The notes under the pieces: generated by a model
What the model was told of the DNA's origin: nothing
The model's input: the letters and a program-made list of their open reading frames with translations, nothing else
Database searches by the model: none
Part shown: positions 1 to 63,831 of the stretch, one piece after another
Position numbering within the stretch: position 1 is the first letter of the stretch
Layout of the letters: each line of letters opens with the position of its first letter
Made by a program: the position numbers and the translations under genes
Virus record (IMG/VR): IMGVR_UViG_3300024999_000046
Direction: 5' to 3' (one strand)
Length of the DNA stretch: 63,831 nt
DNA from: an uncultured virus (IMG/VR IMGVR_UViG_3300024999_000046)
Lineage: Duplodnaviria; Heunggongvirae; Uroviricota; Caudoviricetes

Positions 1-1273
1 TCTGTCCATTGTAATCACACCATTCTAATTTTTTTCCTTGTTCTAAATATCTTCTAATTGTCGCAGAACTCTTTTTTAATTTTACAGATATTTTAATAAT
101 ATCTAACCCGTTATTCCATAAATCACAAGAAACTTTAACTAAACTTTTTAATCCTATTTCATGACATTTTAACCAATCAATATCTTCTTCTTTAAAATTA
201 AGTAATTGTGGTAAATCAGAATTCATAATGCTATGCCTAATCCATTTAATATCAGACCTTCTACAATCCAATATTATGTAATTTTTAATATTATTACTTC
301 TAGCTAACCACTCTTTATCAAAATCACTATTCTGCGTTTCTGTTAATGACCTCCAATTACTTTTTACTTCTTCATAATGTTGAATTCCATGAGTTTCAAT
401 TATGCAATTAATTTTTTCTATATAGTTATCATATTTATAACTACCACACCATTTTAAAGTAGTTTTATTTAATTGAACTATAAAATCCTTATTTAATAAT
501 TGCTCTAAAAATCCGAACAAAAACTTTTCTGGATATGAACCTCCATCTGAACATTTGGGACAACAAACTCCGTTTCTTATTAAATCATACATCGCACTCT
601 CTTTTTCATATCCGCAATCGAGACATTTAATAGGTAATTTTCTTTCTGCAATAGAATATTTTGAAGCGTCTTCCTTATTGGTTAAATATTTTACTAATTC
701 CGGATGAGTAATTATTATTTTATTGCATTGATCACAATAAATAAAATTTTTACTAAGATCATGTCTTATAGAATTGATAATGCTTTTTTGCTCTGATTTA
801 TGTTCTGGATAATTTAAACAATTAAACCAATATCCTTTCCCATTTAAACCACGGGAATTAAAATCTATATCTTCAGGTCGAATTACATTACCATCCTTAT
901 CAATATTTAACTCATAATCCCACCTTGATAAAATCCAATCGGCTAATTCTTTAGTTAATTTATAATAACACCATTGTTTAAAAGATAATCTAATGTTATT
1001 ATTTTTAATATTAACTGCACATTTTTGGCAGTAGTATTTACCATTGTTTTTACTAGTACTCCTTTTATAATAGAACCATTTTAAATTTATTATAGGTTTA
1101 TTACAATAGTCACCATCACATTTTATATTTACGAAAACATTTGAACCATCGGATAAATCTTCGACTTTAACTTCAAATTCATCTTTATATTTTGTAAATA
1201 TATGTCCTTTTGATTCATACCATTTTTTATTATTTGAACTCCATTTTGTAATTGCAACTTTATTTATTATCAA
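1..1273 (-). CDS. Partial (runs off window) Zn-ribbon + Vsr/DUF559-like putative homing endonuclease
   Basis: Manual translation from TTG at 1273 (SD AGGAG about 1286-1290): several CxxC pairs, 'SYPEKF', 'YDNYIEKINCIIETHGIQHY', C-terminal HTH-like 'SATIRRYL'; absent from ORF track. Confidence 0.65.
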   Translation of the reverse strand, partial: MIINKVAITKWSSNNKKWYESKGHIFTKYKDEFEVKVEDLSDGSNVFVNIKCDGDYCNKPIINLKWFYYKRSTSKNNGKYYCQKCAVNIKNNNIRLSFKQWCYYKLTKELADWILSRWDYELNIDKDGNVIRPEDIDFNSRGLNGKGYWFNCLNYPEHKSEQKSIINSIRHDLSKNFIYCDQCNKIIITHPELVKYLTNKEDASKYSIAERKLPIKCLDCGYEKESAMYDLIRNGVCCPKCSDGGSYPEKFLFGFLEQLLNKDFIVQLNKTTLKWCGSYKYDNYIEKINCIIETHGIQHYEEVKSNWRSLTETQNSDFDKEWLARSNNIKNYIILDCRRSDIKWIRHSIMNSDLPQLLNFKEEDIDWLKCHEIGLKSLVKVSCDLWNNGLDIIKISVKLKKSSATIRRYLEQGKKLEWCDYNGQ

Positions 1274-10771: not shown

Positions 10772-13054
10772 TTATTTTTTTGTATAATCCATAAGCAACT
10801 GTTGTAAATGAGTTTGCTTAGTCGATACACTAGTATGAGTAGTTGCATATCTTAATGCCTTATTTTCCGCACATAATACACAATATTCCTTTGCTCTAGT
10901 TTGCATAGTATATACCATTTCTTTCGTAAGTAATTTATAATGAGTATAATCCAAGGCTGCGATCACATATTTGATTCCCGATCCCTGCATCTTATGGCAA
11001 GTTCCTGCATATCCGAGAGCAATATGTTTCAAATGGGCTTTAGGAATGTATATATTGCCTTTATTATTGAAATTGACAACCAATGTTCTCCTATGAATAT
11101 CCATACCTACGACTATTCCTAAATCACCATTGAAAATGGGAACTTCATCACCATTCTCATTTAATGCTTCATAGTTATTTTTATTGTTTAATACTTTATC
11201 TCCAATAAAAATAGTAAAAGGATATTTTGAACCTTCTCCAATTAGTAATTTTGTACTAACATTTGTATCAATTGCAATATCTTGTAGTAAATTATTGAGA
11301 TAATAGGCACTTGCTTTTCCTCTATTTTTCATTGGAACTATTACTTGAATATCAAAAATATCATCTGTTTTTGGCAATAGTTCTTTGAAGTGTGCTACAA
11401 CTCTTTTAGGAGTAGTATCTTTATTTGTGTAAATGTCTAATTCAAAATCTTGCAACTCCCCTCTAATTTCTTTACCAATAAAATTTTTATCAATTATTTG
11501 CTTTTTGTCCTTTATCTTTATACTCTCTGTAACTATGGCTGATTTTTCTGCTTGCCTATGTATCTGTGTTAATTTCACTACTTTAATATAACCACTCTCT
11601 ATCATATCGAACATCACATTTCCTACTCCAATGGCCTCTAATTGATGTTCATCTCCTAGCATAATTAGTTTAGATCCCGATTCGATAGCTTGAATTAATT
11701 TATAATAAATATCTGCTCCCACCATAGACCACTCATCTAAGATAATAATATCTTTAGGCAGTTTATTGCTTTTATTATAAACAAAACCAATTTTAGGATT
11801 ATACCCAAGCAATCTATGTATTGTGTATCCATCTTCACCAGTAATATCACTCAAATTACAAGAAGCTCTACCTGACAAAGCTGTTTGAGCAAAAGTATAA
11901 TTATCCTTAAATACTTCTAACATTCCTGCTACAGTACTGCTCTTGCCCACACCTGCCCCACCAATTATTGCTACAACTTGATATTCTAATATTGCTTGAA
12001 TACCTTCAATTTGTTCATCTGTAAATTCCCAACCTTGTCTCTCTTCTAACCCTTTAATCTTTGTTTTCCAATCACCAATCCCAAATGTATTTTCAACTGA
12101 GTTTAATCTATGGAGTTCTTCAGCAATATTTTTTTCTAATTTGAAATATTTCATCAATCCTACTCTGTCTTTATCTTCATTAGTCCATATTATTTTCTTA
12201 TCATTCATTTCTTTCAATGCTTCAGATAAAATTTCTTGTGGTAAATCAGCACTAATTGATCCATCAACAGCATCTAATAAATCATCAATATCTACCCATG
12301 TATTGCCTATGTTTGCTTCTTCATAAAGATAGTATTTAACATATGCTTTAATTCTGTTGATTGAGTATTCTCCCAATCCTCCTTCTAATGCCATTTCATC
12401 TGCTGTTTCCCATCCTATTCCATCCACTTCATCAATTAATAAGTATGGATTTTCATTGATTTTAGAAATGACTGTATTAGGACTTCCAAAATAATCAACT
12501 AATTTATCAATCATATGTTTGGTTAAACCATATTTATCTAATTCAACATATGCTTCAGAATAATCTTTACCATTTTCATACTTTTCTATTAGCTTTAATG
12601 CTGTAGGAACGGCAATTCCTTTAATGGTGCATAACGCCTTAACGTCTTTATTCTCTAATATTTCCATTGGATTTTCAAATGCTTTGAATATATCTACACA
12701 TTGTTTTTCAGGAAGTATTTTTTCTAAAAATTTATACTGATCAGATTTATTGGTTAATTTTATATCTGTACACATAAATAATACTTGATATTGCAATCCA
12801 AACTTTTCATTGTCAACCTCTTTGCCTGTTACAATATAGATTTCATCATCGTTAATTTCACACATATTTCCAGTTAATGTAATAGTCCCCCATTTATTTG
12901 TTTGAGGTTCGCCTTGCAAAACATCTAATACAGTAGCAGAGATTATACCGAAATCTCCACTACCGATTATCTTGTCTTTAGGAAACATTTGTTTTGATAA
13001 ACGGACTTTACACTTTACTAATATATCTTCATAATCTTCTTCCAAATGTATCAC
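10772..13054 (-). CDS. recD2: RecD2/TraA-like SF1B helicase
   Basis: N-terminal OB and HhH region, Walker A GGAGVGKS, TIHRLL, DEWSM, GDEHQL, HRQA, FNGDLG, CHKMQGS. Confidence 0.9.
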   Translation of the reverse strand: MIHLEEDYEDILVKCKVRLSKQMFPKDKIIGSGDFGIISATVLDVLQGEPQTNKWGTITLTGNMCEINDDEIYIVTGKEVDNEKFGLQYQVLFMCTDIKLTNKSDQYKFLEKILPEKQCVDIFKAFENPMEILENKDVKALCTIKGIAVPTALKLIEKYENGKDYSEAYVELDKYGLTKHMIDKLVDYFGSPNTVISKINENPYLLIDEVDGIGWETADEMALEGGLGEYSINRIKAYVKYYLYEEANIGNTWVDIDDLLDAVDGSISADLPQEILSEALKEMNDKKIIWTNEDKDRVGLMKYFKLEKNIAEELHRLNSVENTFGIGDWKTKIKGLEERQGWEFTDEQIEGIQAILEYQVVAIIGGAGVGKSSTVAGMLEVFKDNYTFAQTALSGRASCNLSDITGEDGYTIHRLLGYNPKIGFVYNKSNKLPKDIIILDEWSMVGADIYYKLIQAIESGSKLIMLGDEHQLEAIGVGNVMFDMIESGYIKVVKLTQIHRQAEKSAIVTESIKIKDKKQIIDKNFIGKEIRGELQDFELDIYTNKDTTPKRVVAHFKELLPKTDDIFDIQVIVPMKNRGKASAYYLNNLLQDIAIDTNVSTKLLIGEGSKYPFTIFIGDKVLNNKNNYEALNENGDEVPIFNGDLGIVVGMDIHRRTLVVNFNNKGNIYIPKAHLKHIALGYAGTCHKMQGSGIKYVIAALDYTHYKLLTKEMVYTMQTRAKEYCVLCAENKALRYATTHTSVSTKQTHLQQLLMDYTKK

Positions 13055-16000: not shown

Positions 16001-17143
16001 TACATCGTCTAATTTTTCTTTTTTGATTTCTCTTTCTGCTATTCCTTTAAATGTTTGAGTAATCAAGAAAGTATGTTGCTCTTCTTTATCTTCATAAAGT
16101 TCTTTTATATATGGATAATTACTTAATATTTTTTGATTAACTGGATACCACTCTGATTTTTCAGGTAATTCCCTCAAAGGAATAATAGATTCAGCAAAGA
16201 AATCATATCCTACAACTTTATCAGCAATTTCTTTAGTATTTAATATTGCTTTTTCAATATCCTCAATTTCTAAATAATCCATATTCTTAAATATCTCATC
16301 CACTGTAAAAAAATGAGTTGTGCTATAAAACATATCTACTTCACGATTATTGTTTAAATCATCTTCTGAAGTTAAGAATGCTTTATGAATTTCTCTATCT
16401 TTTGCTGTTAAATAATGTGCATCGGTTGTCACTATCCATTTTATATTGTAAGCCTTTGCTACTTTTACCGCCATTTTATTGAAGTCTATTTGTTCCTGTT
16501 GTAAAGAGGGTTGGAGTTCGATGTAGAAATCTTCTCCAAATAAATCAAGACACCAATTTAAAAAGTCATCCAATTCATCTTTTATTTGTTCTTGAATCTC
16601 TTCATTTTCTTCTTGTAATAGACTCAAAATCAAGTGTGGTAACATTCCTCCAAGACAGGCACTTGATGCTATCAAATGCCCTTTATTTTCTCCTAAAATT
16701 GATTCTATATCACTATAGAAAGTAGGAACTCTTTCAACACCTTTATAGCTGAATAATCTCGTCCATGCTCTAGTGGATAGTTCTCTCATTTGCTCATGAC
16801 CTTCATTATCCTTGGCTAAAATTAAAAAATGATAGAATTTAGGTTTTTTATTTTGATCCTTCGTTTCTTCATACATTATTTCTTCATCAACTAAATATAT
16901 TTCATTCCCTAGAATTGGCTTAAAATCTCTATGTATCTTATCTTTAGATTTTAATTCCTTTACTGTATTTAAAAATTTAATGTGAGAACTAACAGATTCA
17001 TGCTCGGTTACTGCCATTGCCATATTTCCTAGTTCAGCAACATATAGAATCATATCTTTGACTTTATTTATGGCATCGCGAAAACGGGTGTTGCTATATT
17101 CTGTATGAGTGTGTAAATGAACAAAATCACTATCCTGTAGCAA
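13064..17143 (-). CDS. dnaE: DNA polymerase III alpha subunit (YorL-like)
   Basis: PHP 'HLHTHTEYS', GPGRGSA, DIDID, THACG, KYDFL, GYSFS..HA. Confidence 0.95.
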   Translation of the reverse strand: MLQDSDFVHLHTHTEYSNTRFRDAINKVKDMILYVAELGNMAMAVTEHESVSSHIKFLNTVKELKSKDKIHRDFKPILGNEIYLVDEEIMYEETKDQNKKPKFYHFLILAKDNEGHEQMRELSTRAWTRLFSYKGVERVPTFYSDIESILGENKGHLIASSACLGGMLPHLILSLLQEENEEIQEQIKDELDDFLNWCLDLFGEDFYIELQPSLQQEQIDFNKMAVKVAKAYNIKWIVTTDAHYLTAKDREIHKAFLTSEDDLNNNREVDMFYSTTHFFTVDEIFKNMDYLEIEDIEKAILNTKEIADKVVGYDFFAESIIPLRELPEKSEWYPVNQKILSNYPYIKELYEDKEEQHTFLITQTFKGIAEREIKKEKLDDVLERVNIECKEITGASKAKHQPMGAYLNTMQKNVDIIWEEAESFVGPGRGSANGYIINYLLGITQVNPLEQGVEMPHWRFMSAERPDIFDIDIDYSSHKKDVVMDKVVKYYQSIGGDAIRVCTFGTETSKSAIQTACRGLHINNDVALYLSSLVPVERGKVWSIHDCFYGDPDNGRKAVTEFRNMVSEYTDKNLLNVILGIEGLINKRSTHACGILILNEPITKHNSVMRSPSGELISAYELHDSEQVSNLKYDFLNTKTESMLQLTMEMLVKNNKIEWQGSLRKTYNKYLHPDVIDFKSKEMWDILCRGELLSCFQFESSVGEQAIKLIQPQNLIDASNGNTVMRLMVENGEQPLEKFVRYKNNISEWYKDMKKFGLNEEQINIMERHLLQDNGVCSSQERMMLLTMDSDVAGFGVIESNKLRKGVAKKQQKLIDDAKTLFFEWGEKANAPKILLEYIWNEQIALQLGYSFSILHAVAYTIILIQQLNLVYYYPPIYWNTAVLMVESGAVDRETCDDSDIEAKERTTNYGEIAKAIGKLQAKKINISLPYVNKAEQGFLPNEENNEIIFGFKGIMKINNETAQTIMQNRPYANLEDFHNRLVLVKKEVTLKTGKTQMRSLVAEGQTIMLIKAGAFDKIENKPREEILENYLRLLNPSKQKLNSKDISKIAEMGIIPSNLKDEIKFYNFREYLMSMPKQKDEQTKTITWHKIHDQFNEEDTEYANNFFLENFANEMEENKDYKYDEEGYLLIALGTPRKGSFESIYKNKIAQLNKWINTEECIYTYTNNIFQNIKNENMQGNISSWEMASMSFYSKEAGHELADIDQEKYGVVDFNNLPEEPVVIGFTKYKGLQYPKFQLNRIVGTVLDRDKNKHSVTILTPTGVVTLKFYAGQFSFYDKTISKDVGIADENGKIKKVVLENGWFSRGSLIMVTGFRRGDIFKPKRYKNSIYQHALSKIVEVREDNELILQNDRVQLVE

Positions 17144-17783
17144 TATCTAATTCCTCCTCTTCCTTCTTTATTATGCTGTCTATAAATAAATCAGATTTAG
17201 TATTTGTCTCTTGAAGAAACACTACCCATTCGTCCATAGTCATATCTCTTTTCCCTAAATTTTCGAATAGTGTTAAAAATTGATAATTATTTATTTCTTG
17301 TGTACCACCTTTGGATTTTGGCACAATATGATCGACTGAAGGTTTATACCAATTATAAAAGGTATTATTTGAATTTATTTTATTCTCTTTAATCCAATAC
17401 AGATAAATTAAATTAAATTGCTTATCTATGTAAAACTTCTCAATGAACTGTTTGTAAAATATTATATCTTGGTTTGTTGGGTTACAATGCACAAACGCCT
17501 TATGTAAGAAAGCATATTTTTTAAAATCATCAAATTTATCTACATATTCAAATTCTATAGGTATTTTAGTTGTTGCTACTAGATGGGCTTTTTCTCTAAT
17601 ACAACCACAACTTTGCTGTATGCGTGCTTTCCCATTAACAGCCCTTTGTTCTATTACTATTTTATTACCACAGTCACATTGAAATAACCACTCTCTCGTT
17701 TTTCTACCACTCTTCCTTTCTGGAACCAAAGAAATAGCTACTAGTTTCCCAAATCTTTTCCCCTCAATATTTATTGGTATCAT
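17130..17783 (-). CDS. Free-standing HNH homing endonuclease
   Basis: N-terminal 'GKRFGKL...WLFQCDCGN...SCGC'; C-terminal 'SVDHIVPKSKGG...NYQFL..EN'. Confidence 0.75.
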   Translation of the reverse strand: MIPINIEGKRFGKLVAISLVPERKSGRKTREWLFQCDCGNKIVIEQRAVNGKARIQQSCGCIREKAHLVATTKIPIEFEYVDKFDDFKKYAFLHKAFVHCNPTNQDIIFYKQFIEKFYIDKQFNLIYLYWIKENKINSNNTFYNWYKPSVDHIVPKSKGGTQEINNYQFLTLFENLGKRDMTMDEWVVFLQETNTKSDLFIDSIIKKEEEELDIATG

Positions 17784-29066: not shown

Positions 29067-29834
29067 TTACTGTACGATATTTGAAAATTTATTTATATCT
29101 TTATACTTATATGATTTATTAGATTTCTCATCTTTAATATATAATTTATAATCTTCTGTCAACCATTTTATTATTTTATTATACCTATCTTCTGTAAAAA
29201 ATTCCTGCTTTCTATACCAATCCTCAAAATTAAAATTCCATTTGTGACAATTACATGATTTACAAGCAGGTATGCAATTACTTAAATCATTAGCACCATT
29301 CTCATCATTATGATCTTTATGAAATCCACCTAATTTAGTAACTCCTTTATGTGTAATCCAATGTTCTGTAATCGGTAAACCACAATATGCACATTTATAA
29401 TCAAAATACTTTTGACATGCTTCCCATTCTTTTATACTAATTATATGTTTTCGTTTATTTCTAGAATATTCGTTACATTTTTCAGGATTTCTTCTTCTCC
29501 AACTAGATGAACTTTCATAATGTTGTTGAGGATGTTCATGTCTCCACCTAAGTGTTAATTTATTTCTTTCTTTAAGTTTTGCTTTTTGGTATATTCTTTG
29601 TTTTCTATAAATCTCCTCTTTATTATTTGCTATTCTTTTGCTTGTTGCTTCTATAGAACATTTTTTACACCATGAACTAAATCGATCAGAAGTTTCTTTT
29701 GTTTTATAGAAATATTCCTCAGTCATTGGAAACCACTCTTGATGATCTTTCTTAGTACATTGTTTATATTCTACTCCGTCAATTGTCTTATGCGTCAAAT
29801 TATAATTATATTGATTTCTCTCTTCTCTTGTCAA
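29067..29834 (-). CDS. HNH endonuclease
   Basis: CAYCG...HKDH...GANDLSNCIPACKSCNCHK. Confidence 0.85.
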   Translation of the reverse strand: MTREERNQYNYNLTHKTIDGVEYKQCTKKDHQEWFPMTEEYFYKTKETSDRFSSWCKKCSIEATSKRIANNKEEIYRKQRIYQKAKLKERNKLTLRWRHEHPQQHYESSSSWRRRNPEKCNEYSRNKRKHIISIKEWEACQKYFDYKCAYCGLPITEHWITHKGVTKLGGFHKDHNDENGANDLSNCIPACKSCNCHKWNFNFEDWYRKQEFFTEDRYNKIIKWLTEDYKLYIKDEKSNKSYKYKDINKFSNIVQ

Positions 29835-31330: not shown

Positions 31331-31933
31331 TCAGTTATTGATTGGCTCAATATGTATATCAGATTCAATTTCATTGCCCCACGAATCCCATCCATCAGCT
31401 TTTTGTCTAGCAAATAATTCAACTCTAGGCAAATCTCCACATAATTCTATTATCTTATCTCTTACAATATCAGGTTTCTTGCTATGTTGTTCTATTGGCG
31501 TATCTATAACAGAATGAACACTTGCTGACATGCGTTTAGGCTTACCTTTTGTTGCCAACAAACATATCTCTGCATTTGCTCTAGTCCAGCTTCCCATACC
31601 CCAAAACCAACTATCCGCTTTTTTATTTTTCTTTACCCATGTAAACGCACAAGTTTTATATTCAAAACCCCAAGCACTAATTACATCAAAACATTCATTA
31701 AGTTTGGGCATTGTAACCCACATAAACAAAATACAATCTTCTGCTGCTAATTCTTTTATAGGCAGATTATTGATATCTTTAGAATCCATTACATCATATT
31801 TGCATCCTGCACCTCTATTACCAGCAAGTGCTTTATCTCTATAACTCCAAGGAGGATCTGCATATATAATATTATACTTTTTAATGTTTATTCCCTCTTT
31901 CTTAATTATATTTATCTTATTTGTAGTTCCCAT
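31331..31933 (-). CDS. MT-A70-family adenine methyltransferase (SD points to ATT start at 31885)
   Basis: IIYADPPW, LFMW, WGFEYKT, TRANAE, HSKKP, ELFAR, GWDSWGNE. Confidence 0.9.
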   Translation of the reverse strand: MGTTNKINIIKKEGINIKKYNIIYADPPWSYRDKALAGNRGAGCKYDVMDSKDINNLPIKELAAEDCILFMWVTMPKLNECFDVISAWGFEYKTCAFTWVKKNKKADSWFWGMGSWTRANAEICLLATKGKPKRMSASVHSVIDTPIEQHSKKPDIVRDKIIELCGDLPRVELFARQKADGWDSWGNEIESDIHIEPINN

Positions 31934-34038: not shown

Positions 34039-34647
34039 TTATTTATTTTTACTATCAAAATAATTGCTTAAAGATTCACCATACCATTCCCAATTATCCA
34101 CTCCTCCATTTTCTAATGCAGTTAATATTTCATCTCTATGTATAAGTTCATCATATTCTTCTTTGGAAATGGTATTTTTAGTATTTTTAACTTTAATATT
34201 GTTACCTGTAATTGCATTAATTAATTCAGATACAGAACTATTGATCTTAGATTTTACTTGGTTTTGAATATTTGAATATAAAACATTGTATAATTTATCA
34301 ATCGTTTCAGATTTGATTTCATCAATAATATTTTCCTCTGCAAGATTAAATGCATTTGTCATATCCTTACTAAATGTATCTTCATATTTCTTTTTATATT
34401 CATCTTTAATTTCTGAAATTAACTTCTGATATACCTTTTCCTTAATTTCTGTTTTAATTTCATCTCTGATTTCATATTCATCTTTATATGTAAGAGATAT
34501 CTTATTTTTCATTTCTGTTTTAACCTGATTAATTGCACTAGAGGTAATATCATCAAAAGTTGCTTCTGACATTTCTTTAATTACCCCTAACTTAATTCCC
34601 TCAAAAACCTCTTTAAAATCAAATTCAAATTTAAGTGCTGTGCTCAT
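34039..34647 (-). CDS. Hypothetical phage protein
   Basis: C-terminal 'LTALENGGVDNWEWY' motif typical of phage proteins. Confidence 0.65.
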   Translation of the reverse strand: MSTALKFEFDFKEVFEGIKLGVIKEMSEATFDDITSSAINQVKTEMKNKISLTYKDEYEIRDEIKTEIKEKVYQKLISEIKDEYKKKYEDTFSKDMTNAFNLAEENIIDEIKSETIDKLYNVLYSNIQNQVKSKINSSVSELINAITGNNIKVKNTKNTISKEEYDELIHRDEILTALENGGVDNWEWYGESLSNYFDSKNK

Positions 34648-37783: not shown

Positions 37784-38641
37784 TTATCTATAGGACTCCA
37801 TATAGTCCTTAATGTCTTCTTTCAAATCTTTTTTCTTGATTTTTGTAGCAATTACTTCTATAGTATTTCTCATTTCATCAACACTCCATAATTGATGATA
37901 AAACTTTCCAGTATTACCATCTTTTTTCTTAACTACCCTATAAGGTAATTTATCCTCTATGTAATCTTTATACCCTTCTGCCATCCATAGTTTTATGAAT
38001 TGTAACATAGTTTCACTGAAAAATTCCTGCTTTCTATACCAATCTTCCATATCATGCTGATGTTTATAACTATTACATCTTTTACAAGATGGTACAGAAT
38101 TTCTTAGATCATTGTATCCATCGCTCACAACATGTTCTTTATGTAGTTTTTGTTTATATATTCTTAAATGTTCTTCTTCTGTAATCCCACAGTATGCACA
38201 TTCACAACCAAATATTTCTAAACAATTATCCCATTCCTCTTTGGAAATATCGTGCTTTCTTTTATTTTTTGAATACTCTCGTATTCTATCTGGATTCTTT
38301 TTTACAAACCTTTCATGATCACTAATCATTTTTTCTCTATTATGTTCTCTGTTGTATTCCCTGTGAGCTTGATGTCTATCATTATAAGCTTGTTTATTTG
38401 CAAGATAGTGATCTGCATTCCATTTTCTTGCTCTTTCAATATTGTTATTTCTGTTTTCTCTAGCTTTATCAATTAGACATACTCTACATCCTGGAGTTAA
38501 CCCTAATTCTGGTTTTGATTTGTTTATCATATAGAAATTGTCAAATGTTTCTTCTTTCCATTCTTCGCATATAGTACACATCTTTTCAATTATATTATTA
38601 ATATTTCTTCGCTTCAACCAATATATTTCTTTTCTAGTCAA
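37784..38641 (-). CDS. HNH endonuclease, paralog of 29067..29834
   Basis: CAYCG...HKEH...NDLRNSVPSCKRCN, shared EDWYRKQEFF. Confidence 0.85.
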   Translation of the reverse strand: MTRKEIYWLKRRNINNIIEKMCTICEEWKEETFDNFYMINKSKPELGLTPGCRVCLIDKARENRNNNIERARKWNADHYLANKQAYNDRHQAHREYNREHNREKMISDHERFVKKNPDRIREYSKNKRKHDISKEEWDNCLEIFGCECAYCGITEEEHLRIYKQKLHKEHVVSDGYNDLRNSVPSCKRCNSYKHQHDMEDWYRKQEFFSETMLQFIKLWMAEGYKDYIEDKLPYRVVKKKDGNTGKFYHQLWSVDEMRNTIEVIATKIKKKDLKEDIKDYMESYR

Positions 38642-44805: not shown

Positions 44806-45219
44806 TTACAAATGACATATTAAAATCTCAATATCTGTATCTTTGAATACTTCTTGAATAATTTCTCTAGTTTTACCCCATTGCAATCTATCCAGACCGC
44901 ATCCTATTTTTGGCATAGCAATAAATTTAATTTCTTTATCTAATGCTAATTCTCTCATCATAAGCACTGCACCTTCAAGAGAACTATAAGTAGGTTTATT
45001 CCAATACTTTGCTTTTGTAATGAGGTTATATACTCTGCCGATTTGAATACACATTGGATACTCAGGATCACATTGAAGTAATTTATTTCTTAACTTAAAT
45101 TTATTCTGAAATTCAACTGCAATTCCTGCACCCATAGCACAATCTTCTGAGATACAATGTGCTAAATAGTATTTTTTATCAACTTCAAACAGATTACGTT
45201 TCTCTTCTTTAAGTATCAT
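44806..45219 (-). CDS. Macro domain protein (Poa1p/TARG1-like)
   Basis: LAHCIS.D.AMGAGIA, YNLITK, MPKIGCGLD.L.W. Confidence 0.88.
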   Translation of the reverse strand: MILKEEKRNLFEVDKKYYLAHCISEDCAMGAGIAVEFQNKFKLRNKLLQCDPEYPMCIQIGRVYNLITKAKYWNKPTYSSLEGAVLMMRELALDKEIKFIAMPKIGCGLDRLQWGKTREIIQEVFKDTDIEILICHL

Positions 45220-52059: not shown

Positions 52060-52492
52060 TTACTTCACCAACTCCTTTCTAACAATTTCACTAGCAATTT
52101 TACCATCATAAGTACCACCATAGGAGTTCTTCAGTACAGACATAACTTTACCAATTTGCACTTCTGAATTAATATCTTTCAATGCATCAATAATATCTCT
52201 AACAACACTTTCTAACTCCTCTCTACTCATTTTCTGAGGTAAATACTTACTCAAAACTTTAATCTCATTATCAACATTACTTGCATCTTTATTGTTTTTC
52301 AAAAGAATTGTTTGAATTTCATTTGCACCTTTAATAAATTTCTCAATGACTTGCAATACTTCTTGGTCTGTAGATTCTCTGTTTCCAAGGTTCTTACCTA
52401 TCATAGAGGCTTCAGAATATAGTGTGGTTAATAAAAGTTTGTCGAGCCTTACGAGCGATAAGAGCATCTGATTTAATTTGATTGATTAACAT
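52060..52492 (-). pseudogene. Frameshifted GatB/YqeY-family gene
   Basis: ATG at 52492 gives MLINQIKSDALIARKAR, out of frame with LLTTLYSEA...EIKVLSKYLPQ...GKVM..LK..YGG.YDGK. Confidence 0.75.
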
Positions 52493-57100: not shown

Positions 57101-57134
57101 AGTCTATAGTCCCATTAACTTGGGACTATAGACT
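57101..57134. terminator. Perfect 14-bp stem overlapping the repressor stop codon
   Basis: AGTCTATAGTCCCA-ttaact-TGGGACTATAGACT. Confidence 0.65.
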
Positions 57135-58116
57135 GTGTTTGTTTGTATGTTTCATACATTTCTTTTAATCCTTGCCATCCCCTTTCATCTAATTGTAAAT
57201 CTCTAAATAATTGTCTAAAGTTTTCTGATGTCAATTCGCCAACTTCATTTTCTTTCTTTAAGCATCTGTCTAATAATCCAGATTGAAATACTAAAGTAGG
57301 ATTTAAGAATTTAATTCCAGTATATTGTCTAAAATTCTTAAATCTTGCACCAATGTTTCCTACAGTTATCCTTTCTTCAGTATTGTTCTTTCTTCCGATT
57401 GTACGTAAAATATATGGAGTATCTTTAGTTGGTAAAATAGCAAATCTACCATCATCTAAACCATTTAATTTATGATAAGTATCTTCCAAACAAGCCATTT
57501 GTAAAATCTCCATAGTTCTAGGATCTACAGTTATCGGTCTTGATTGAGGAAATAAGATTTCACCGTAAGGATCTCTAGTAACAATAATTGTATTTGATTC
57601 GGGAATAAGATCAGTCTTTTTAATATTTCTTAATTCTTCAAAAGTATGATCTTTAATTGGTCTTCCCCTTACAGTCTCAAATAATAGTGCCACAACCGAC
57701 TTATCAGCGTAATTATAAAGCATGTCGCAATAATTATACATTTGTTCTCTAGTAATATAGGAAAGCTTTTGAGCTACTTGATGAATATATTTTGGTAAAT
57801 CTTCTTTTTTATCAACTAACTTAAGAACATTCATAGAACTATGGTTTTCTGCTAAACACCAGTCTAAATATTGCATAATGATTGTATAAGCAACACCTAA
57901 TGATTTAAGAGACTTTTTCTTCATTCCAATTAGTAATTCTTTTACTTCTTCATAACTAAATTTACATAAGTCTTTGTTTTTCTCATGTTCGAACCTGCTA
58001 ACGTTTTTTAAAATTGAGGTATTTGTCATCCGAGTGCTTTCATTTGGATATTTTTCATTAAGAAAACGATTCTTTTGCTCTTCATTAAATAATGTTCTTT
58101 CAATAGTGAATGACAT
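57115..58116 (-). CDS. YopR/MrpR-like master repressor (degenerate tyrosine-recombinase fold)
   Basis: Blocks FNEEQK, NKDLCKF, YLDW, YITREQ, NYADKSVVALLFE, FLNPTLVFQSG parallel SPbeta YopR as I recall it; no HxxR catalytic motif. Confidence 0.82.
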   Translation of the reverse strand: MSFTIERTLFNEEQKNRFLNEKYPNESTRMTNTSILKNVSRFEHEKNKDLCKFSYEEVKELLIGMKKKSLKSLGVAYTIIMQYLDWCLAENHSSMNVLKLVDKKEDLPKYIHQVAQKLSYITREQMYNYCDMLYNYADKSVVALLFETVRGRPIKDHTFEELRNIKKTDLIPESNTIIVTRDPYGEILFPQSRPITVDPRTMEILQMACLEDTYHKLNGLDDGRFAILPTKDTPYILRTIGRKNNTEERITVGNIGARFKNFRQYTGIKFLNPTLVFQSGLLDRCLKKENEVGELTSENFRQLFRDLQLDERGWQGLKEMYETYKQTQSIVPS

Positions 58117-59480
58117 TATGATACCTCCTCCTTATTTTCGGAATTAGAAATAATATCCTTGAAATAATCTAAAATCTTTTTAAAGGTAGATCGATTGACA
58201 TTATTTTCAATTCCAATTTTTCTCCAAATTTTATTTGACTTATTGAAGTCCAAAGATTTTAAAACTTTTAAAAACTTAGGCTTCCAATCATCACCATGCT
58301 TTTGTTTCATCAAATCTCCTAATATAATATATCCCATAAACATATTATCATGCGCCATATAAGTGTTTTCTCTGGTGTTTGATAATAATTCCAATTTAAA
58401 TTTAGAGTGATAAAGACCAATGACATTATTAAATATTTCAATAATATCATTCTCAACTTCTTCTGTTCTAATAGCTGGTTCCTCTTTAAGATCATAAATA
58501 AACTCAATTGTTTTTGATAGAGTATCAAACGTCATTAATTTGTTTTCAATTTTTAATTCTTTTTCGTTTAAGGCTATGCGATTAAACATATCGTTCTTGC
58601 TTTGGTGACTGTTTATAGCTTTAGCTACTTCCATGTTTGGATTAGCTGTATCTTTAAAATCGACCCATTCTGTTTGAATTGGGGCAGCTAAACTTTCTTG
58701 TTTTATTATTTGATTCGCACGTTCTTCTGTGACATGATGAATATATATTGACGTAACCCTATCAATTTCCGGCTTAATTTCAACTACTTTTACCATACCA
58801 CAAGTACGATTGGCCCCATCAATTATATCTACGAAAGTCGTAATATTATCTGGTTCAATTAATAAAGTTCTAGCTTTTGCGTCATATTTAAATTTCTCTT
58901 GTCCATTTATCTTTCTAATATTCCATATAATGGCGTTCGGGCAGAAAGTATTATCTAACATTGATGACGTAATTTCCGTAACTTTTTTACCACCAACATT
59001 AATTGATTCAACAATCTTATCACCACTTCTTCTTTTAAGAAGTTGTCTTTGAGTATTGGGATTGTAAGTTAATAAACCATTCCCCATATAAACCCCAACA
59101 TTTTGATAAGTGTCTTTGGTGCATAAAAATTGAGTTGCGCTAATTTGATCAACATTATGAAGTAGAATATATTTAACTTTTTCTTTTTCTAACTTTTGGT
59201 ATGTTTCAGCAAAAGACAATTCAATTTCAGTAAAATATTCATCTGGATCTATTTCTGGTTTGCGAGTATATCCATAGAGATACTTTGTAAATAAACACAA
59301 TTCTGTTTCTGATACATAAACCAAAGGAATTGCTTTAGTAAATATACCTGTTGTCCTACCCCTTGGAATCCCTCTTTCTAATAATTTAATTATTACTTGC
59401 TCTTGAACTTGATTGTCATTTGAATAATCTTCAATTACCAAATCAAGAACATCCTCAAGAACTTGACGGTCTTTTTTCAT
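58116..59480 (-). CDS. YopQ-like DndB/DGQHR-family protein (start reassigned to MKKDRQ)
   Basis: 'YNPNTQR', 'IIDGANRT' DGQHR-like motif; SD AAAGGAGG; translationally coupled to the YopR-like gene. Confidence 0.75.
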   Translation of the reverse strand: MKKDRQVLEDVLDLVIEDYSNDNQVQEQVIIKLLERGIPRGRTTGIFTKAIPLVYVSETELCLFTKYLYGYTRKPEIDPDEYFTEIELSFAETYQKLEKEKVKYILLHNVDQISATQFLCTKDTYQNVGVYMGNGLLTYNPNTQRQLLKRRSGDKIVESINVGGKKVTEITSSMLDNTFCPNAIIWNIRKINGQEKFKYDAKARTLLIEPDNITTFVDIIDGANRTCGMVKVVEIKPEIDRVTSIYIHHVTEERANQIIKQESLAAPIQTEWVDFKDTANPNMEVAKAINSHQSKNDMFNRIALNEKELKIENKLMTFDTLSKTIEFIYDLKEEPAIRTEEVENDIIEIFNNVIGLYHSKFKLELLSNTRENTYMAHDNMFMGYIILGDLMKQKHGDDWKPKFLKVLKSLDFNKSNKIWRKIGIENNVNRSTFKKILDYFKDIISNSENKEEVS

Positions 59481-59572
59481 AATAATTCCTCCTTTGAATA
59501 TATTAATTTTACATAGCTTTGACACAATCATGTCCACAAATAGTATATAATATTTTGCTATGTAATATTACC

Positions 59573-59601
59573 ATTATAAAACTATTATACTCAAAGGTCA
59601 A
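59573..59601 (-). promoter_or_regulatory. SigA-type promoter for the repressor operon
   Basis: TTGACC-17-TATAAT. Confidence 0.65.
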
Positions 59602-59651
59602 GAGAAATAGACATAATATATTTATTTTAGTGAAATTTATTATTAAAAATT

Positions 59652-60443
59652 TTAATAAAACATATTCTCATAAGTTTGTAACTTCATTTGTTCTTTACAC
59701 AGTAAATTGTTGATAAACATCAATAGTAAAGTTATGAAAATTATTGGCACACAAGTTATCCCAATGATAATATACAATTTTTCTATAAATTGTATATAGA
59801 TTAAAATATTGTTTCTCTCTATTAATTTTACAATGTAAGAAACTAAAGAAATTCTAACTAATACCATTAAAAGTAGACTATATATAAAGAACTTGTTTTT
59901 AACTATGGAGTTGAATAACTCAATTTGAACTGTACTATTTCTTCTCATTATTACAAATGAAATGACACATAAATACAATACTCTTGCAGGAAGACCTAAT
60001 AGAAAGTTGTAGTATACATTAGCATTAAAAAATGATATTGGTCTATCTAACAATGAGGCAATTAAGGGACAATATGAATATTCTACTAGTCCTACAATAA
60101 CGAATCCTGCTATTGTGTAGATTGCTGTCTTAAGGATTAATAAAATGTTAATGTCGTAACTGTTATTTATAACTATAAATTCCATGAGTAAAATCATAAT
60201 AATCATAGTTGAAATCATCATATTTTGCTGGGGTACAATTATTATGTATTTTAGGATATTTATCATTATGGATACTGGAAGCACAGCTAATGCAATCCAT
60301 TTTAGGCTTTTATTCCACATGTAAATGTCTAGAAGATTATTTAGTTTTAGGAATATTAGAGTTATTATTACGACGAAGGATTCTTCTGGGATTGATGTGA
60401 AGATTATGTTTAGGAAAATGTGGGGTAGGGATAGTGTTTGCAT
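59652..60443 (-). CDS. Multi-pass membrane protein, AgrC-sensor-like without kinase domain (paralog 2)
   Basis: About 7-8 hydrophobic segments, 'SIPEE' motif, no HisKA/HATPase motifs; adjacent to agrB. Confidence 0.7.
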   Translation of the reverse strand: MQTLSLPHIFLNIIFTSIPEESFVVIITLIFLKLNNLLDIYMWNKSLKWIALAVLPVSIMINILKYIIIVPQQNMMISTMIIMILLMEFIVINNSYDINILLILKTAIYTIAGFVIVGLVEYSYCPLIASLLDRPISFFNANVYYNFLLGLPARVLYLCVISFVIMRRNSTVQIELFNSIVKNKFFIYSLLLMVLVRISLVSYIVKLIERNNILIYIQFIEKLYIIIGITCVPIIFITLLLMFINNLLCKEQMKLQTYENMFY

Positions 60444-60488
60444 ATGGGTGCGCTCCTTTTTATTTTATTTAGTTAGATTGTATTTTAT

Positions 60489-61139
60489 TTAAGAATCTAA
60501 CTTTGAGTATACGATTTGTCCTATTTTACATACGCTAAACAATTCTAATAATAATCCGAAACAACTAGAAATTACAATTATTTTTAAATTAAAAAAAATG
60601 AAGACAATCATTAATATAGACCATATTAGTAAAAAATATAATGATTGCCTTTTAAGTTTTTTTATTTGCAAAATATCTATAATTCTATTGTTAGGGGTAT
60701 CCCTCGGACAATATCGAATACTTATATATAAACCAATAATTAAACATGTCATAAACAGCCACAATACGGATGATTGAGTCCAATAACAAAGAGTAAGTGA
60801 AACTACTAAAGCAGAACCTACAAATTGTGTAAAACTGACTATTATACAACCATTGTACGTATTCATATGATAACCACCAGCAGCAATAATTCTTAAGGAT
60901 GAAAATGTTAATATAATAGATAAAATTGATATTATAGAATTTAACATATTACCTACTAAAATACCTAAAATAACAGTGAAACATATTAATAAAAATCCTT
61001 TATATAAAGCACCTATTGGGAGCATCCATCCATATGTGAAGACTTCAATCTGATCTTCTACGGTTGGATATTTAGTGTTTGGTACATTCGAAGCTAACCA
61101 TTTAGCCAAATAATTTGAAACTCTTTCCACTAAACTCAT
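60489..61139 (-). CDS. agrB: AgrB peptide-processing protease
   Basis: 'EVFTYG', 'LRIIAAGGYH......C' with catalytic His/Cys, 'P.DTPN', multiple TMs. Confidence 0.92.
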   Translation of the reverse strand: MSLVERVSNYLAKWLASNVPNTKYPTVEDQIEVFTYGWMLPIGALYKGFLLICFTVILGILVGNMLNSIISILSIILTFSSLRIIAAGGYHMNTYNGCIIVSFTQFVGSALVVSLTLCYWTQSSVLWLFMTCLIIGLYISIRYCPRDTPNNRIIDILQIKKLKRQSLYFLLIWSILMIVFIFFNLKIIVISSCFGLLLELFSVCKIGQIVYSKLDS

Positions 61140-61166
61140 TAAATTATTTAATCTTCCTTTCTTTAA

Positions 61167-61940
61167 TCATGCAAATGCTACATGCTGACTTGCACTACGA
61201 TTGTAATTATTTTGATATTGGAATGTTTTCTGCTTGTTCATATTCATTAAGTATTGAACTGCTTCTTGTTCGTTCATTTTAAGATGGATAACTCCTTGAG
61301 CCTTAAGCATCGCAACTTCTACCAATAACATTATCTCTGAAGGACATTCCGATACTTTTTGAACTATCCCATTTTGACTGAGCCTCCTTTTTGACACACA
61401 GCGAATTTGTTCACAACTAATAATTGATTCTTGGGGCAATCCACAGTTTTTGGCCTCAACATGGGTAGGGAGCTTTGCCTTGGATTTTCTACTGGTGAGA
61501 GGTAAAATAATAGAAGTTGATGAGAAATGATTGCCCACATCGTTTTGTATAACTAAACATAAACGATTACCACCATATTCTGAATCAATGACATCACCCA
61601 AACCAACATAACAAAATGTTCCTCTTCGAACTTCAATGTTTTTAATTTGTTCCATATCATTGTTTACATAATTAGAGTAACCACAAGCTAAAGTTAAATC
61701 TTTTAATGAAACTCTACCTTCAGATGTATCTGCAATAATTTTAAGAAATTTAATGTCTGGATAAGAATTTATTTTCGCATTAAGTATATTAGCTAAATAA
61801 TCTGCATTAGTTTTACAATCAGCAGCAAATCCATTGGTTGTTCTATGCCCTTTTGCAGTCATAACGTAATTTGCCAATTTTTTAAAATCTTTCTTTGCGT
61901 TTTCCTCAGTAGTAACCTTTTTCATTAATTTGTTAAACAT
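61167..61940 (-). CDS. XRE-like HTH fused to MazF/PemK endoribonuclease (start reassigned to MFNKL)
   Basis: C-terminal half 'RRG...SEYGGNRLCLVIQNDVGN...PLTS..KAKLPTHVE...EQIR..SKRRL' parallels B. subtilis NdoA/MazF; N-terminal HTH-like segment; SD AAGGAG. Confidence 0.85.
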   Translation of the reverse strand: MFNKLMKKVTTEENAKKDFKKLANYVMTAKGHRTTNGFAADCKTNADYLANILNAKINSYPDIKFLKIIADTSEGRVSLKDLTLACGYSNYVNNDMEQIKNIEVRRGTFCYVGLGDVIDSEYGGNRLCLVIQNDVGNHFSSTSIILPLTSRKSKAKLPTHVEAKNCGLPQESIISCEQIRCVSKRRLSQNGIVQKVSECPSEIMLLVEVAMLKAQGVIHLKMNEQEAVQYLMNMNKQKTFQYQNNYNRSASQHVAFA

Positions 61941-62005
61941 AATAACGCATCTCCTTTTCATAATAACATATTTCATTTTCCTTGATACTTAACTTTATAT
62001 CTATA

Positions 62006-62033
62006 ATATTATCACAAATAAGAGATATGTCAA
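62006..62033 (-). promoter_or_regulatory. SigA-type promoter for HTH-MazF, agrB and membrane gene
   Basis: TTGACA-16-TAATAT with TG. Confidence 0.55.
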
Positions 62034-62057
62034 TATGTTTTATAAAATTATTTTTAA

Positions 62058-62093
62058 TTTTATAGGGGAGACTTTTTAGTCTCCCCTATAAAA
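62058..62093. terminator. Perfect 16-bp stem directly after agrD
   Basis: TTTTATAGGGGAGACT-tttt-AGTCTCCCCTATAAAA; no clear U-tract, so may be a stabiliser. Confidence 0.65.
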
Positions 62094-62102
62094 GAGTTTG
62101 TC

Positions 62103-62222
62103 CTATTTCAGACAACTAGGTTTTTTAGGCTGATAAGAAAATGCAAAAGAGAACATATGCGATGCATATAATGCGGAAGCAGACAATAAACCAGCAAGAG
62201 CAATGTACATTTTATTTTTCAT
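62103..62222 (-). CDS. agrD: AgrD-type cyclic lactone autoinducer precursor (39 aa)
   Basis: Manual: MKNKMYIALAGLLSASALYASHMFSFAFSYQPKKPSCLK; SD AAAGGAGGTG; leader + ring + YQPxxP tail typical of clostridial AgrD; near agrB. Confidence 0.9.
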   Translation of the reverse strand: MKNKMYIALAGLLSASALYASHMFSFAFSYQPKKPSCLK

Positions 62223-62268
62223 AATTTTCACCTCCTTTACTTACTTTTTTATACATAACAAATGTTTT

Positions 62269-63060
62269 CTAATCATTAAGATTATCATACATTTGATGTA
62301 CACGTTTTTCTATTCCAACTACATAATTAATCATATACCATAGAATTATTAAAAATATAGTTGGGAGACTTAAACACCATCCTATAATAAATATTTGTTC
62401 CAATATTGGTAAATTACATGTAATCAAAATATTATTATAACCTATTAATTTAACTACATAAATTAAAAAGAATATCAAAAATATTACTATAAAAATTATA
62501 ATGTGAGTTAATGTTTTGTTTTTAAAAATGATATCATATAATTTCACATTAACTTGTTCATTAACTTTAACTATAAAAAATGTGACTAATGAAAATTCTA
62601 AAATCCTGCAAGGTATTACTAATAAAAACATATATAATATATTCTCATTGAAAAAATTATATGATATTTTTAATAATGAAAATGTTAATGGCATATATAA
62701 TAGTTCTATGGAAGTGATTATTATAAATACAATCATTGTATATATAATAGTTTTGGCAATAAGTTTTCTTTCAGGATCAATCGATAATGTTTTAATAATA
62801 TAGTAAATTGTTGCACAAAATGTAATTAAAGAAATCATAGTAATCCACAATTTAGGTAAAATTATTATGTATTTAAAAACATTTATACAAACTGACATTG
62901 ATAATGAAGGAATCATGATCCATTTTATATTGTATTTCCACATTCTTATATCTAATAAGTCAAACCTTTTAAATAATATTAGCGTCATACAAGTTGCGAA
63001 TATTTCTTCGGGAAGAGAGATAAATATTGTACTTAATAAAGCATGGATTATGTTTTGCAT
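62269..63060 (-). CDS. Multi-pass membrane protein, AgrC-sensor-like without kinase domain (paralog 1)
   Basis: 263 aa like 59652..60443; shared 'S(I/L)PEE', 'LLDI.MW...KWI', 'KYIII.P', 'P.R.L'. Confidence 0.7.
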   Translation of the reverse strand: MQNIIHALLSTIFISLPEEIFATCMTLILFKRFDLLDIRMWKYNIKWIMIPSLSMSVCINVFKYIIILPKLWITMISLITFCATIYYIIKTLSIDPERKLIAKTIIYTMIVFIIITSIELLYMPLTFSLLKISYNFFNENILYMFLLVIPCRILEFSLVTFFIVKVNEQVNVKLYDIIFKNKTLTHIIIFIVIFLIFFLIYVVKLIGYNNILITCNLPILEQIFIIGWCLSLPTIFLIILWYMINYVVGIEKRVHQMYDNLND

Positions 63061-63098
63061 ATGTCATTACTCCTTTTATTTTTATTATCTTTAAGATA

Positions 63099-63127
63099 AT
63101 TTTACCATATGCAAAACACCATGTCAA
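63099..63127 (-). promoter_or_regulatory. SigA-type promoter for membrane paralog 1 and agrD
   Basis: TTGACA-17-TAAAAT with TG. Confidence 0.7.
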
Positions 63128-63137
63128 TATTTATTTA

Positions 63138-63734
63138 TTAATTTATATTAAGAAATTTAACTGAATGATAGACAATTATAAAAGCAAATAATCTACATAA
63201 AATATCACCTATTGATAAAATTGATGTTCCGAAATCGAATACATCTGATAAAAATATCAATCTTGTTGTATGGCCTCCAAGAACATAAAATTCACTAAAC
63301 TTAGAGGCATTCATAATCATATCATACTGTGTGTAACCAGTTGAATAAGACACCGATGGAAAAATTGGCATGAGATTATTGTTAAAATGCATTACAATCT
63401 TATTCAATGTAAAGCCACACAAGAGACTACAACAAGCAATAATATACTCCTTATACTTCTCATGCCTAAACAAAACATCAAGTCCCAGAATCATGTATGA
63501 TCCTAATATAGCATTTTTTATTATGTGTTGATATTGAAGAAAATAGTAATTTTGATTCATTATCGTGTATTGTAGGTAGACATAGAATATTGACATAATT
63601 ATTACTGGATAGATGCTCCATATTTTTAGTATTGGTTTTATATTGTACGATTCTTTATGTATTTGGAGTTTTCCTAGTTTTATGTATAGTTTTGTTTTTA
63701 TAAGAATCAGACTAAATATTAATGTCTCAACCAC
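63138..63734 (-). CDS. DUF5317-like membrane protein
   Basis: 'G..LN..V...N...MP', 'T.L.FLSD', 'LSIGD'. Confidence 0.7.
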   Translation of the reverse strand: MVETLIFSLILIKTKLYIKLGKLQIHKESYNIKPILKIWSIYPVIIMSIFYVYLQYTIMNQNYYFLQYQHIIKNAILGSYMILGLDVLFRHEKYKEYIIACCSLLCGFTLNKIVMHFNNNLMPIFPSVSYSTGYTQYDMIMNASKFSEFYVLGGHTTRLIFLSDVFDFGTSILSIGDILCRLFAFIIVYHSVKFLNIN

Positions 63735-63831
63735 TTACTGGCACTTCCTCTTTATCTATTTTTCTTAATTCACCAAAATCATAATTAATTGTATATTCGC
63801 GACACTCTAATTTCTTTTCTTCTATGTATAT
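63727..63831 (-). CDS. 3' end of an upstream gene (partial)
   Basis: Open frame ...IHRREKKLECREYTINYDFGELRKIDKEEVPVSG* overlapping the DUF5317 start. Confidence 0.45.
   Translation of the reverse strand: MYIEEKKLECREYTINYDFGELRKIDKEEVPVSG

Follow-up and report, generated by a model that had tools for sequence, protein, structure and literature searches.

In classical agr loci, agrD is located next to agrB, and the specificity groups of staphylococcal agr are defined by a hypervariable agrB-agrD-agrC segment, in which the signal gene is partnered by AgrB and the sensor kinase AgrC. Phage peptide signaling is represented by the Arbitrium system (AimP/AimR), which consists of a linear phage peptide and an intracellular receptor. 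Agr genes on phages have been on record since 2014. [quoted passage not shown] In bacteria, a four-gene clostridial agr operon is represented by CPE1563-CPE1562-agrB-agrD of C. perfringens (Vidal 2009, PMC2706048). Serine rings are known as well and, according to PMC12312760, include RIPT[STGFF] of S. pseudintermedius, GBAP of E. faecalis, and the predicted Agr2 peptide of C. difficile. In the description of the C. thermocellum AgrD Clo1313_2818, the leader is cut at A24/S25, the lactone is formed between S25 and F29, and Y30 and P35 follow, and the tail-free cyclic pentapeptide is stated to have been detected by LC-MS/MS (Verbeke 2017, PMC5322536). Tail-free clostridial thiolactones are reported to rearrange to homodetic cyclopeptides, and the fate of tail-free serine lactones, in the words of the same report, “remains to be clarified” (Molloy et al. 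2021, PMC8251862).

The window analysed here, by which is meant the whole stretch of 63,831 nt from an uncultured virus, was low in GC (26-31%) and carried at its right end, on the minus strand, a module in the order DUF5317, TM263a, agrD, HTH-MazF fusion, and AgrB. The features of the module are as follows.

63138..63734, minus strand: membrane protein of the DUF5317 family, opening the module (PF17248, E 4.2e-16)
63099..63127, minus strand: promoter-like site before TM263a and agrD (TTGACA, 17 nt, TAAAAT, with TG), resting on 11/12 consensus matches only
62269..63060, minus strand: TM263a, a polytopic membrane protein of 263 aa between DUF5317 and agrD
62229..62238, minus strand: Shine-Dalgarno sequence of agrD, AAAGGAGGTG, in which GGAGG occupies 62231-62235 and is separated from the ATG by 8 nt
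62103..62222, minus strand: agrD ORF, with the ATG at 62220-62222 and the stop TAG at 62103-62105, encoding a 39-aa precursor with a leader (residues 1-24), a predicted ring (S25-F-A-F-S29), and a tail (Y30-QPKKPSCLK)
62058..62093, no strand assigned: hairpin with a perfect 16-bp stem (62058-62073 / 62078-62093) and a 4-nt loop, 9 nt past the agrD stop
62006..62033, minus strand: promoter-like site before the MazF fusion and AgrB (TTGACA, 16 nt, TAATAT, with TG), resting on 10/12 consensus matches only
61167..61976, minus strand: HTH-like/MazF fusion of 269 aa (PF02452, MazF/PemK endoribonuclease, E 5.2e-19, residues 117-220)
60489..61139, minus strand: AgrB, the membrane peptidase/cyclase acting on AgrD (PF04647, E 5.9e-24, model positions 2-184 of 185)
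59652..60443, minus strand: TM263b, a paralog of TM263a (also 263 aa, 37% identity) located after AgrB and present in some relatives only

Like phiCDHM1 and the Paenibacillus phages as presented in PMC3901668, the phage encoded both AgrB and AgrD; unlike phiCDHM1, which carries a histidine kinase, no kinase was found in the phage family of the window, and a polymorphic cassette is not known to have been described for those earlier phages. DUF5317, another small, polytopic membrane protein, AgrB, and an AgrD tail of the form [YH]QPxxPKCL were shared with the clostridial four-gene operon, but in the phage the gene order was changed, HTH-MazF was inserted, the second membrane protein was of 263 and not 161 aa, and the ring contained mostly Ser. 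By the description of PMC5322536, the peptide of C. thermocellum (Acetivibrio/Hungateiclostridium thermocellus) resembles that of the window in Ser25, the five-residue ring, Tyr30, and Pro35; it is a bacterial peptide for which that description reports no agrB or agrC nearby, whereas the gene of the window is phage-borne and accompanied by AgrB and a co-varying membrane partner. As in the staphylococcal agr groups, a sharply bounded hypervariable segment comprised the signal gene and part of the membrane partner with conserved flanks, but the phage AgrB was outside the cassette (100% identical between the loci L007 and L008), and the partner was kinase-less and belonged to no recognised family. 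The likeness to Arbitrium is in concept only, namely a phage-encoded peptide, presumably secreted, with many specificity variants; the proteins are unrelated. Serine rings and phage agr genes were thus known already, and what is new is the kinase-less module with an HTH-MazF fusion and a polymorphic signal/partner cassette.

The earlier note on this DNA had picked out an unannotated 39-aa ORF with a strong Shine-Dalgarno sequence and a 16-bp downstream hairpin, all of which were present as described. The product was MKNKMYIALAGLLSASALYASHMFSFAFSYQPKKPSCLK, and its sole Cys, residue 37, was in the tail, where the note had also placed it. An alternative 42-aa ORF started with GTG at 62231, and the use of this form is unlikely since its start codon is located inside the Shine-Dalgarno sequence. 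Shine-Dalgarno sequences preceded agrD in 6/6 loci inspected and in nearly all of the metagenome loci. The only other match to the AgrD motif in the window was interrupted by stops, so that a second agrD was not present there. The stretch itself was present in four DNA sequencing runs of one groundwater study, and no RNA run was listed as containing it.

The hairpin behind agrD had a folding energy of -24.8 kcal/mol (70-nt stretch), and downstream GC hairpins of differing sequence were found in 6/6 loci inspected, at the same place in L001 and L005-L008. In the window and these relatives the pairing was kept while the sequence differed, and all stems contained GGGAGG / CCTCCC and were without a T tract. 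Since the T tract was absent and the terminator scan of 59500-63831 gave 0 sites, a canonical intrinsic terminator was ruled out and the element is regarded as a conserved hairpin, which could be involved in the stabilisation of the RNA 3' end or in attenuation, or could be a boundary of cassette recombination.

Seven IMG/VR loci, on contigs of up to 230 kb, contained relatives of AgrB; about 1 kb upstream of agrB, each of the seven had an ORF of 38-39 aa carrying the motifs of the window peptide, and the gene order was that of the window. Scanning metagenomes with the TM263 alignment yielded 58 loci, in 47 of which TM263a was followed by an AgrD ORF led by a Shine-Dalgarno sequence, the other 11 being matches to TM263b only or cut contigs. 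An ORF that matched in size, motifs, and location was present in 7/7 related viral loci and 47/58 metagenome loci, and this conservation beyond chance confirmed agrD as a real gene. The module was also present in one bacterial MAG contig (13.9 kb, Clostridium sp. MAG), and the scan of genome contigs with the AgrB alignment yielded a single true locus (L008) besides a spurious one (L009). Altogether, some 50 loci of large tailed phages, of up to 230 kb, contained the module of DUF5317, TM263a, agrD, HTH-MazF, and AgrB, which is newly described here. The assignment to tailed phages was based on the portal, the 1609-aa tape measure, and the tail proteins of the 230-kb relative (PHROGs, run on 36 of the 61 ORFs with 300 aa or more); the Terminase_6N and tail-sheath models of Pfam matched nothing in the two complete relatives, each of which contained exactly one AgrD match. 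Deposited phage genomes gave no megablast match to 59000-63831, and the AgrD and AgrB of the window gave no tblastn match in 50,697 deposited phage records. The nearest virus record (G001) had no match to the module, which carries no weight as this record is a 20%-complete fragment, and TM263a as a single query found nothing in viral contigs. A literature search turned up no work on agr genes of jumbo phages.

The identification of the peptide as AgrD, which the earlier note had proposed, was supported by a family model and by the gene context. The window peptide passed the NCBIfam model TIGR04223, which is the curated model “AgrD family cyclic lactone autoinducer peptide”, with 19.8 bits against a cut-off of 19 (E 6.6e-4), a margin of 0.8 bit, and 6/6 phage homologues tested also passed it with 19.9-31.3 bits; the Pfam AgrD model gave no match to the window peptide at E <= 1. 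With the 42-aa GTG form as the query, a 90%-identical protein of 39 aa was found in the protein collection. An AgrD profile built from six peptides and run against 1.84 billion representatives gave 34 proteins at E <= 1e-3, one of which, the 168-aa repeat protein P0025, was left out before alignment. The remaining matches were 38-46 aa long, nearly all with the motif A-S-x4-[YHN]-Q-P-x-x-P-K-C-L-K, and two carried the source name “cyclic lactone autoinducer peptide”. Q31-P32 was invariant among the aligned relatives, and P35 was present in 37 of the 38. In addition to these motifs, the precursor was short, its hydrophobic/amphipathic leader being followed by a core and then by a charged tail with P-x-x-P, and AgrB (PF04647) was present in the same module in all complete loci, though agrB was not adjacent to agrD. 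Judged from these sequence features, the window peptide is an AgrD and a new member of a known peptide family.

The nucleophile of the ring was assigned by alignment. The earlier note had placed Ser25 as the nucleophile, with five ring residues before QP, and the QP-anchored alignment agreed with this placement, as Ser25 was located six residues before Q31 in the column that contained the ring Cys in homologues. The C. perfringens ring that it gave as an example, [CLWFT], is also printed in PMC12312760. Among the 38 aligned relatives, this position was Ser in 34, Cys in two, Thr in one, and Tyr in one; because the alignment stemmed from a profile seeded with Ser-type peptides, the Ser majority is partly circular, and the informative part is the presence of Cys or Thr at exactly that column (3/38 rows). 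The metagenome scan with the TM263 alignment was independent of the AgrD profile and, together with the window, L007, and L008, extended the 47 loci to 50, with 39 distinct AgrD sequences of the phage module, in which the nucleophile position was Ser in 32 and Cys in seven. The interchange of Ser and Cys within one homologous module supports the ring assignment, and S-F-A-F-S is the best prediction for the window. The residue before Ser25 was Phe in the window peptide versus Ala in 31/38 relatives, which makes the cut site of the leader and any exocyclic tail uncertain.

A second gene order was also observed, in which AgrB immediately preceded DUF5317, the stop and start often overlapping (L035, L037, L039, L042, L043, L046-L048, L052-L056, L067, L071). 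All but one of the Cys-ring phage AgrD were found in this order, the exception being L063 (ring CHFWF) with the first gene order, and the second order also contained a separate subgroup of Ser rings with W as the last residue (S-x-x-x-W-HQ[PS]).

It was also considered that the gene might be a decayed or unprocessed AgrD relic, or that a ring might be formed by another route, such as through the tail Cys37, with Ser not being the nucleophile. The marginal TIGR04223 score and the presence of Cys37 in 29/38 relatives are in line with this reading, but the ORF, the Shine-Dalgarno sequence, and the motifs were maintained in some 50 loci despite numerous changes, both synonymous and in the ring, which makes it very improbable. 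Cys37 as the nucleophile was rejected, since it was replaced with A, M, R, I, or L in 9/38 relatives and was equally present in Cys-ring bacterial AgrD. Moreover, the known Agr chemistry, as outlined in PMC8251862 and PMC10196373, releases the tail before cyclisation.

The agrB gene of the window was intact and located about 1 kb downstream of agrD, with the MazF fusion in between. R83, G89, H91, and C98 were invariant in five phage AgrB, and PMC10196373 names R70, G75, H77, and C84 among the key residues of S. aureus AgrB, where cleavage needs the Arg and Gly and the His and Cys are catalytic; the R, G, and H-x6-C spacing of the phage proteins fits G75/H77/C84 of S. aureus in terms of motif spacing, not of structural alignment. 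Compared with four related phage AgrB, the window protein contained an 8-residue insertion (about residues 64-71) and an extra Ala before GGYH.

With these components, it is probable that the phage agrD is functional and is converted by AgrB into a five-residue lactone closed at Ser25, with TM263a as the cognate partner. In this process, as drawn from Agr systems already characterised, the phage AgrB, with the putative catalytic residues Cys98 and His91, would cut between S29 and Y30 and keep the peptide as an acyl-enzyme, and the hydroxyl of Ser25 would then attack the acyl-enzyme to form the ester of the five-residue lactone ring. The amphipathic leader (residues 1-24) would be removed after ring closure. 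If the leader were cut directly before Ser25 as in C. thermocellum, a free amine would be generated, which could allow an O-to-N acyl shift to the head-to-tail cyclo(SFAFS). In view of the report of Molloy et al. cited above, this rearrangement, which the earlier note had raised, is a reasonable question and not a finding. The neutral monoisotopic mass calculated for cyclic SFAFS is 539.238 ([M+H]+ 540.245; linear form +18.011), and an ester would not differ in mass from its amide isomer.

A marked pattern in the module was the joint variation of TM263a and agrD. Between L007 and L008, 3.9 kb of DNA was 95-100% identical, with the exception of the last two thirds of TM263a plus agrD, where identity fell to 56-75%; this patch started about 120 nt into TM263a and stopped just past agrD. 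In modules of the L007/L008 type, the rings SWLFT and SWLWS stand against each other. At the protein level, AgrB was 100% and the MazF fusion was 97% identical, and TM263a and AgrD were 68% and 82% identical, respectively. In 34 locus pairs with MazF fusions at least 90% identical (from 47 non-identical loci; pairs not mutually independent), TM263a was 37-78% identical where the rings differed (31 pairs) and 92-100% identical where the ring was shared (three pairs). Among the same-ring pairs, TM263a was 89-100% identical in 9/10, even where DUF5317, MazF, or AgrB was only 73-88% identical, with lows of 73-79%; in the exception, L020/L008, the ring was common but the rest of AgrD was not. The per-position entropy of TM263a placed the variation after about residue 50, with no finer localisation. 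The comparison of ring variation with the membrane paralogs that the earlier note had proposed was run, and co-variation was strikingly present, with TM263a tracking the ring across locus pairs. TM263a and agrD therefore form a hypervariable cassette, the parts of which vary together between nearly identical flanks including AgrB. As TM263a and agrD are adjacent, joint recombination could link both without a functional tie, yet DUF5317 also adjoins TM263a and did not follow its variation. The location of this cassette in a conserved module argues for TM263a as the cognate partner of the peptide.

TM263a itself had no match in Pfam, PHROG, or NCBIfam, and its best 50 homologues (183-287 aa) contained none with a domain or a name. 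Its Atlas cluster had 637 members, 76% of which were viral among the 216 with a phylum recorded; a second Atlas match was named “putative sensory transduction protein kinase” (0.88) and serves as a lead only. The structure predicted from 59 sequences had a pLDDT of 82.6 and about seven long helices, and the model from nine sequences was unusable (pLDDT 49.5). Foldseek with the TM263a model gave 0 matches at E <= 1e-3 in PDB and BFVD, and VIA-align wide gave a best Z of 7.2, with helical hairpins only. The leads from BFVD were two phage membrane proteins of about 160 aa, with TM-scores of 0.69 and 0.60 on the target. These searches showed no recognisable sensor, protease, or transporter fold and no output domain in TM263a. 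By hhalign, TM263 was collinear with 17 TM161 proteins over 141 columns without significance (E 0.023, prob 2%), and the comparisons with a single TM161 and with one AgrC-like kinase (prob 0.6%) were not significant either. The complex prediction of TM263a with the AgrD precursor gave a score of 0.02 (mark 0.32), which counts neither for nor against an interaction. TM263a would most likely be the sensor of the peptide, and a role as a leader-processing or export factor is less likely.

On the sensing side, the AgrC-type ATPase domain PF14501 and the LytTR domain PF04397 were found in 0/5 related phage records, two of which were rated 100% complete, and the 54 ORFs of the window scanned with Pfam contained no kinase or LytTR domain. 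The AgrC-type kinase and the AgrA-type LytTR regulator, which belong to canonical agrBDCA, were thus absent from the window and the five relatives as far as scanned. Since neither a kinase nor a regulator was found, a private receptor pathway is something that we infer, and the “private phage channel” of the earlier note is a plausible proposal.

The same absence of PF14501 and PF04397 from the five related phage records and the window ORFs is also compatible with a signal directed at the host, in which the peptide released by infected cells would act as an agonist or antagonist on the host Agr receptor of neighbouring cells and TM263a would be a processing or export helper. The peptide might then steer sporulation, toxin, or defence programmes, which is itself compatible with the best explanation. 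The cross-inhibition by non-cognate AIPs in staphylococci is presented as established in PMC12312760. In addition, the tail YQPKKPSCLK and the hydrophobic aromatic ring of the window peptide resembled the AgrD of the putative host genus (16/16), which followed the pattern C[FWY][WF]xx-YQPEEPKCLREK. However, a fixed host receptor would not obviously require a hypervariable phage membrane partner, and the host assignment is itself indirect. Host manipulation is therefore possible but held tentatively.

The bacterial counterpart of the module was found in the genus of the Clostridium sp. MAG. AgrB was present in this MAG, which contained the module copy, and in 21/29 other genomes of the genus, and 17 of the 30 loci examined there contained, in this order, DUF5317, a 161-aa membrane protein, AgrB, (AgrD), and a GGDEF protein, an arrangement that resembles the four-gene operon of C. 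perfringens (PMC2706048). CPE1563 of C. perfringens is presumably the DUF5317 protein, judging from these loci. All 16 AgrD detected in the genus contained a Cys ring and the tail YQPEEPKCLRE/DK. The earlier note had set the serine of the phage peptide against the thiolactone signals of the host, and the putative host genus was consistent with this, as all 16 were Cys-type. Seven phage variants were themselves Cys, in view of which the ring sequence, and not O versus S, looks like the specificity variable. Between the phage module and the bacterial operon, AgrB was 26% and DUF5317 38% identical. The phage module is accordingly an old, rearranged derivative of the bacterial DUF5317-TM161-AgrB-AgrD operon, with TM263 in the slot of the 161-aa protein, and the host of the phage is most likely a Clostridium. 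In nearly every one of these loci of the putative host genus (L010, L072-L087, L097), a gene for a 405-aa GGDEF diguanylate cyclase was located after agrD, which hints at a link between this DUF5317-TM161-AgrB-AgrD type of agr and c-di-GMP. A full-text search of the literature found no paper on DUF5317, and the present loci draw attention to DUF5317 and the second membrane protein, which belong regularly to clostridial agr operons but have gone unstudied.

A further reading takes agrD and its neighbour as a peptide and immunity pair. A small variable peptide gene beside a variable polytopic membrane protein is the usual layout of bacteriocin and immunity genes, and the arrangement of agrD and TM263a fits it. 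The cyclic peptide would then inhibit competitors or uninfected cells, TM263a would provide immunity or export, and the hypervariability would reflect an arms race. A toxin-type gene (MazF) is located within the module, and the synthetic cyclic pentapeptide of C. thermocellum is reported in PMC5322536 to have slowed growth at 50 uM. Nevertheless, the peptide fits a signalling family with a dedicated AgrB, and Pfam, PHROG, and NCBIfam gave no bacteriocin-family match for any protein of the module, so that this reading is improbable. The signal from phage to phage is ranked first, though as a preference held with reserve, followed by the host-manipulating signal, which is a lesser possibility, and by the inhibitory peptide with immunity, which ranks well below.

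In its widest form, the phage-to-phage reading would mean that clostridial tailed phages of about 230 kb have their own polymorphic peptide language, with a distinct cyclic pentapeptide, mostly closed through serine, for every phage lineage, a cognate TM263a as its kinase-less receptor, and HTH-MazF as the output; taken as a whole, this picture is doubtful. If it is true, TM263a would be a new class of receptor (seven-helix and kinase-less) for Agr-type peptides, the phages could count infections by kin and adjust their development, and the shift from Cys to Ser would help to separate the phage and host channels. In contrast to the phage agr genes known since 2014, the present set consists of 39 AgrD precursors paired with matching TM263a variants and no kinase. 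With so many natural variants and no kinase, it becomes testable who senses a phage Agr peptide and whether tail-free serine lactones persist or rearrange.

The candidate output gene was consistently linked to the cassette, as the HTH-MazF fusion was always 3' of agrD. In PHROGs, the fusion matched MazF-like proteins and, weakly, a transcriptional regulator at residues 28-101, and no separate antitoxin gene was seen beside it. In relatives, a stand-alone MazF-like ORF of about 135 aa was located upstream of DUF5317 (e.g. L001:50-472, L007:1524-1928). Directly after the agr module, 57115-59537 on the minus strand encoded a DndB-like protein (PF14072) and an MrpR-type recombinase (PF22822/PF22823), and this pair adjoined the module in nearly all relatives, with about 80% conservation in some loci and 22-30% in others.

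Elsewhere in the window, replication genes were recognised with PHROGs, including those of DNA polymerase, RNR, primase, helicase, NAD ligase, and a RecJ-like exonuclease. The minus-strand ORFs at 31331-31933, 44806-45219, and 52060-52467 encoded an MT-A70 methyltransferase, a Macro-domain protein (a marginal match, 22.2 bits where the cut-off is 22), and a YqeY-like protein, respectively. The 202-aa ORF at 34039-34647 (minus strand) contained a C-terminal match to the phage T7 gp5.9 family of RecBCD inhibitors (PF25708, E 1.9e-16). HNH/homing endonuclease genes were numerous both in the window (2-1273, 17130-17783, 29067-29834, 37784-38641) and in the 230-kb relative (L101-L106), and in the latter a large PHROG 8308 gene was apparently split (L102:9189-10844, 11859-12821).
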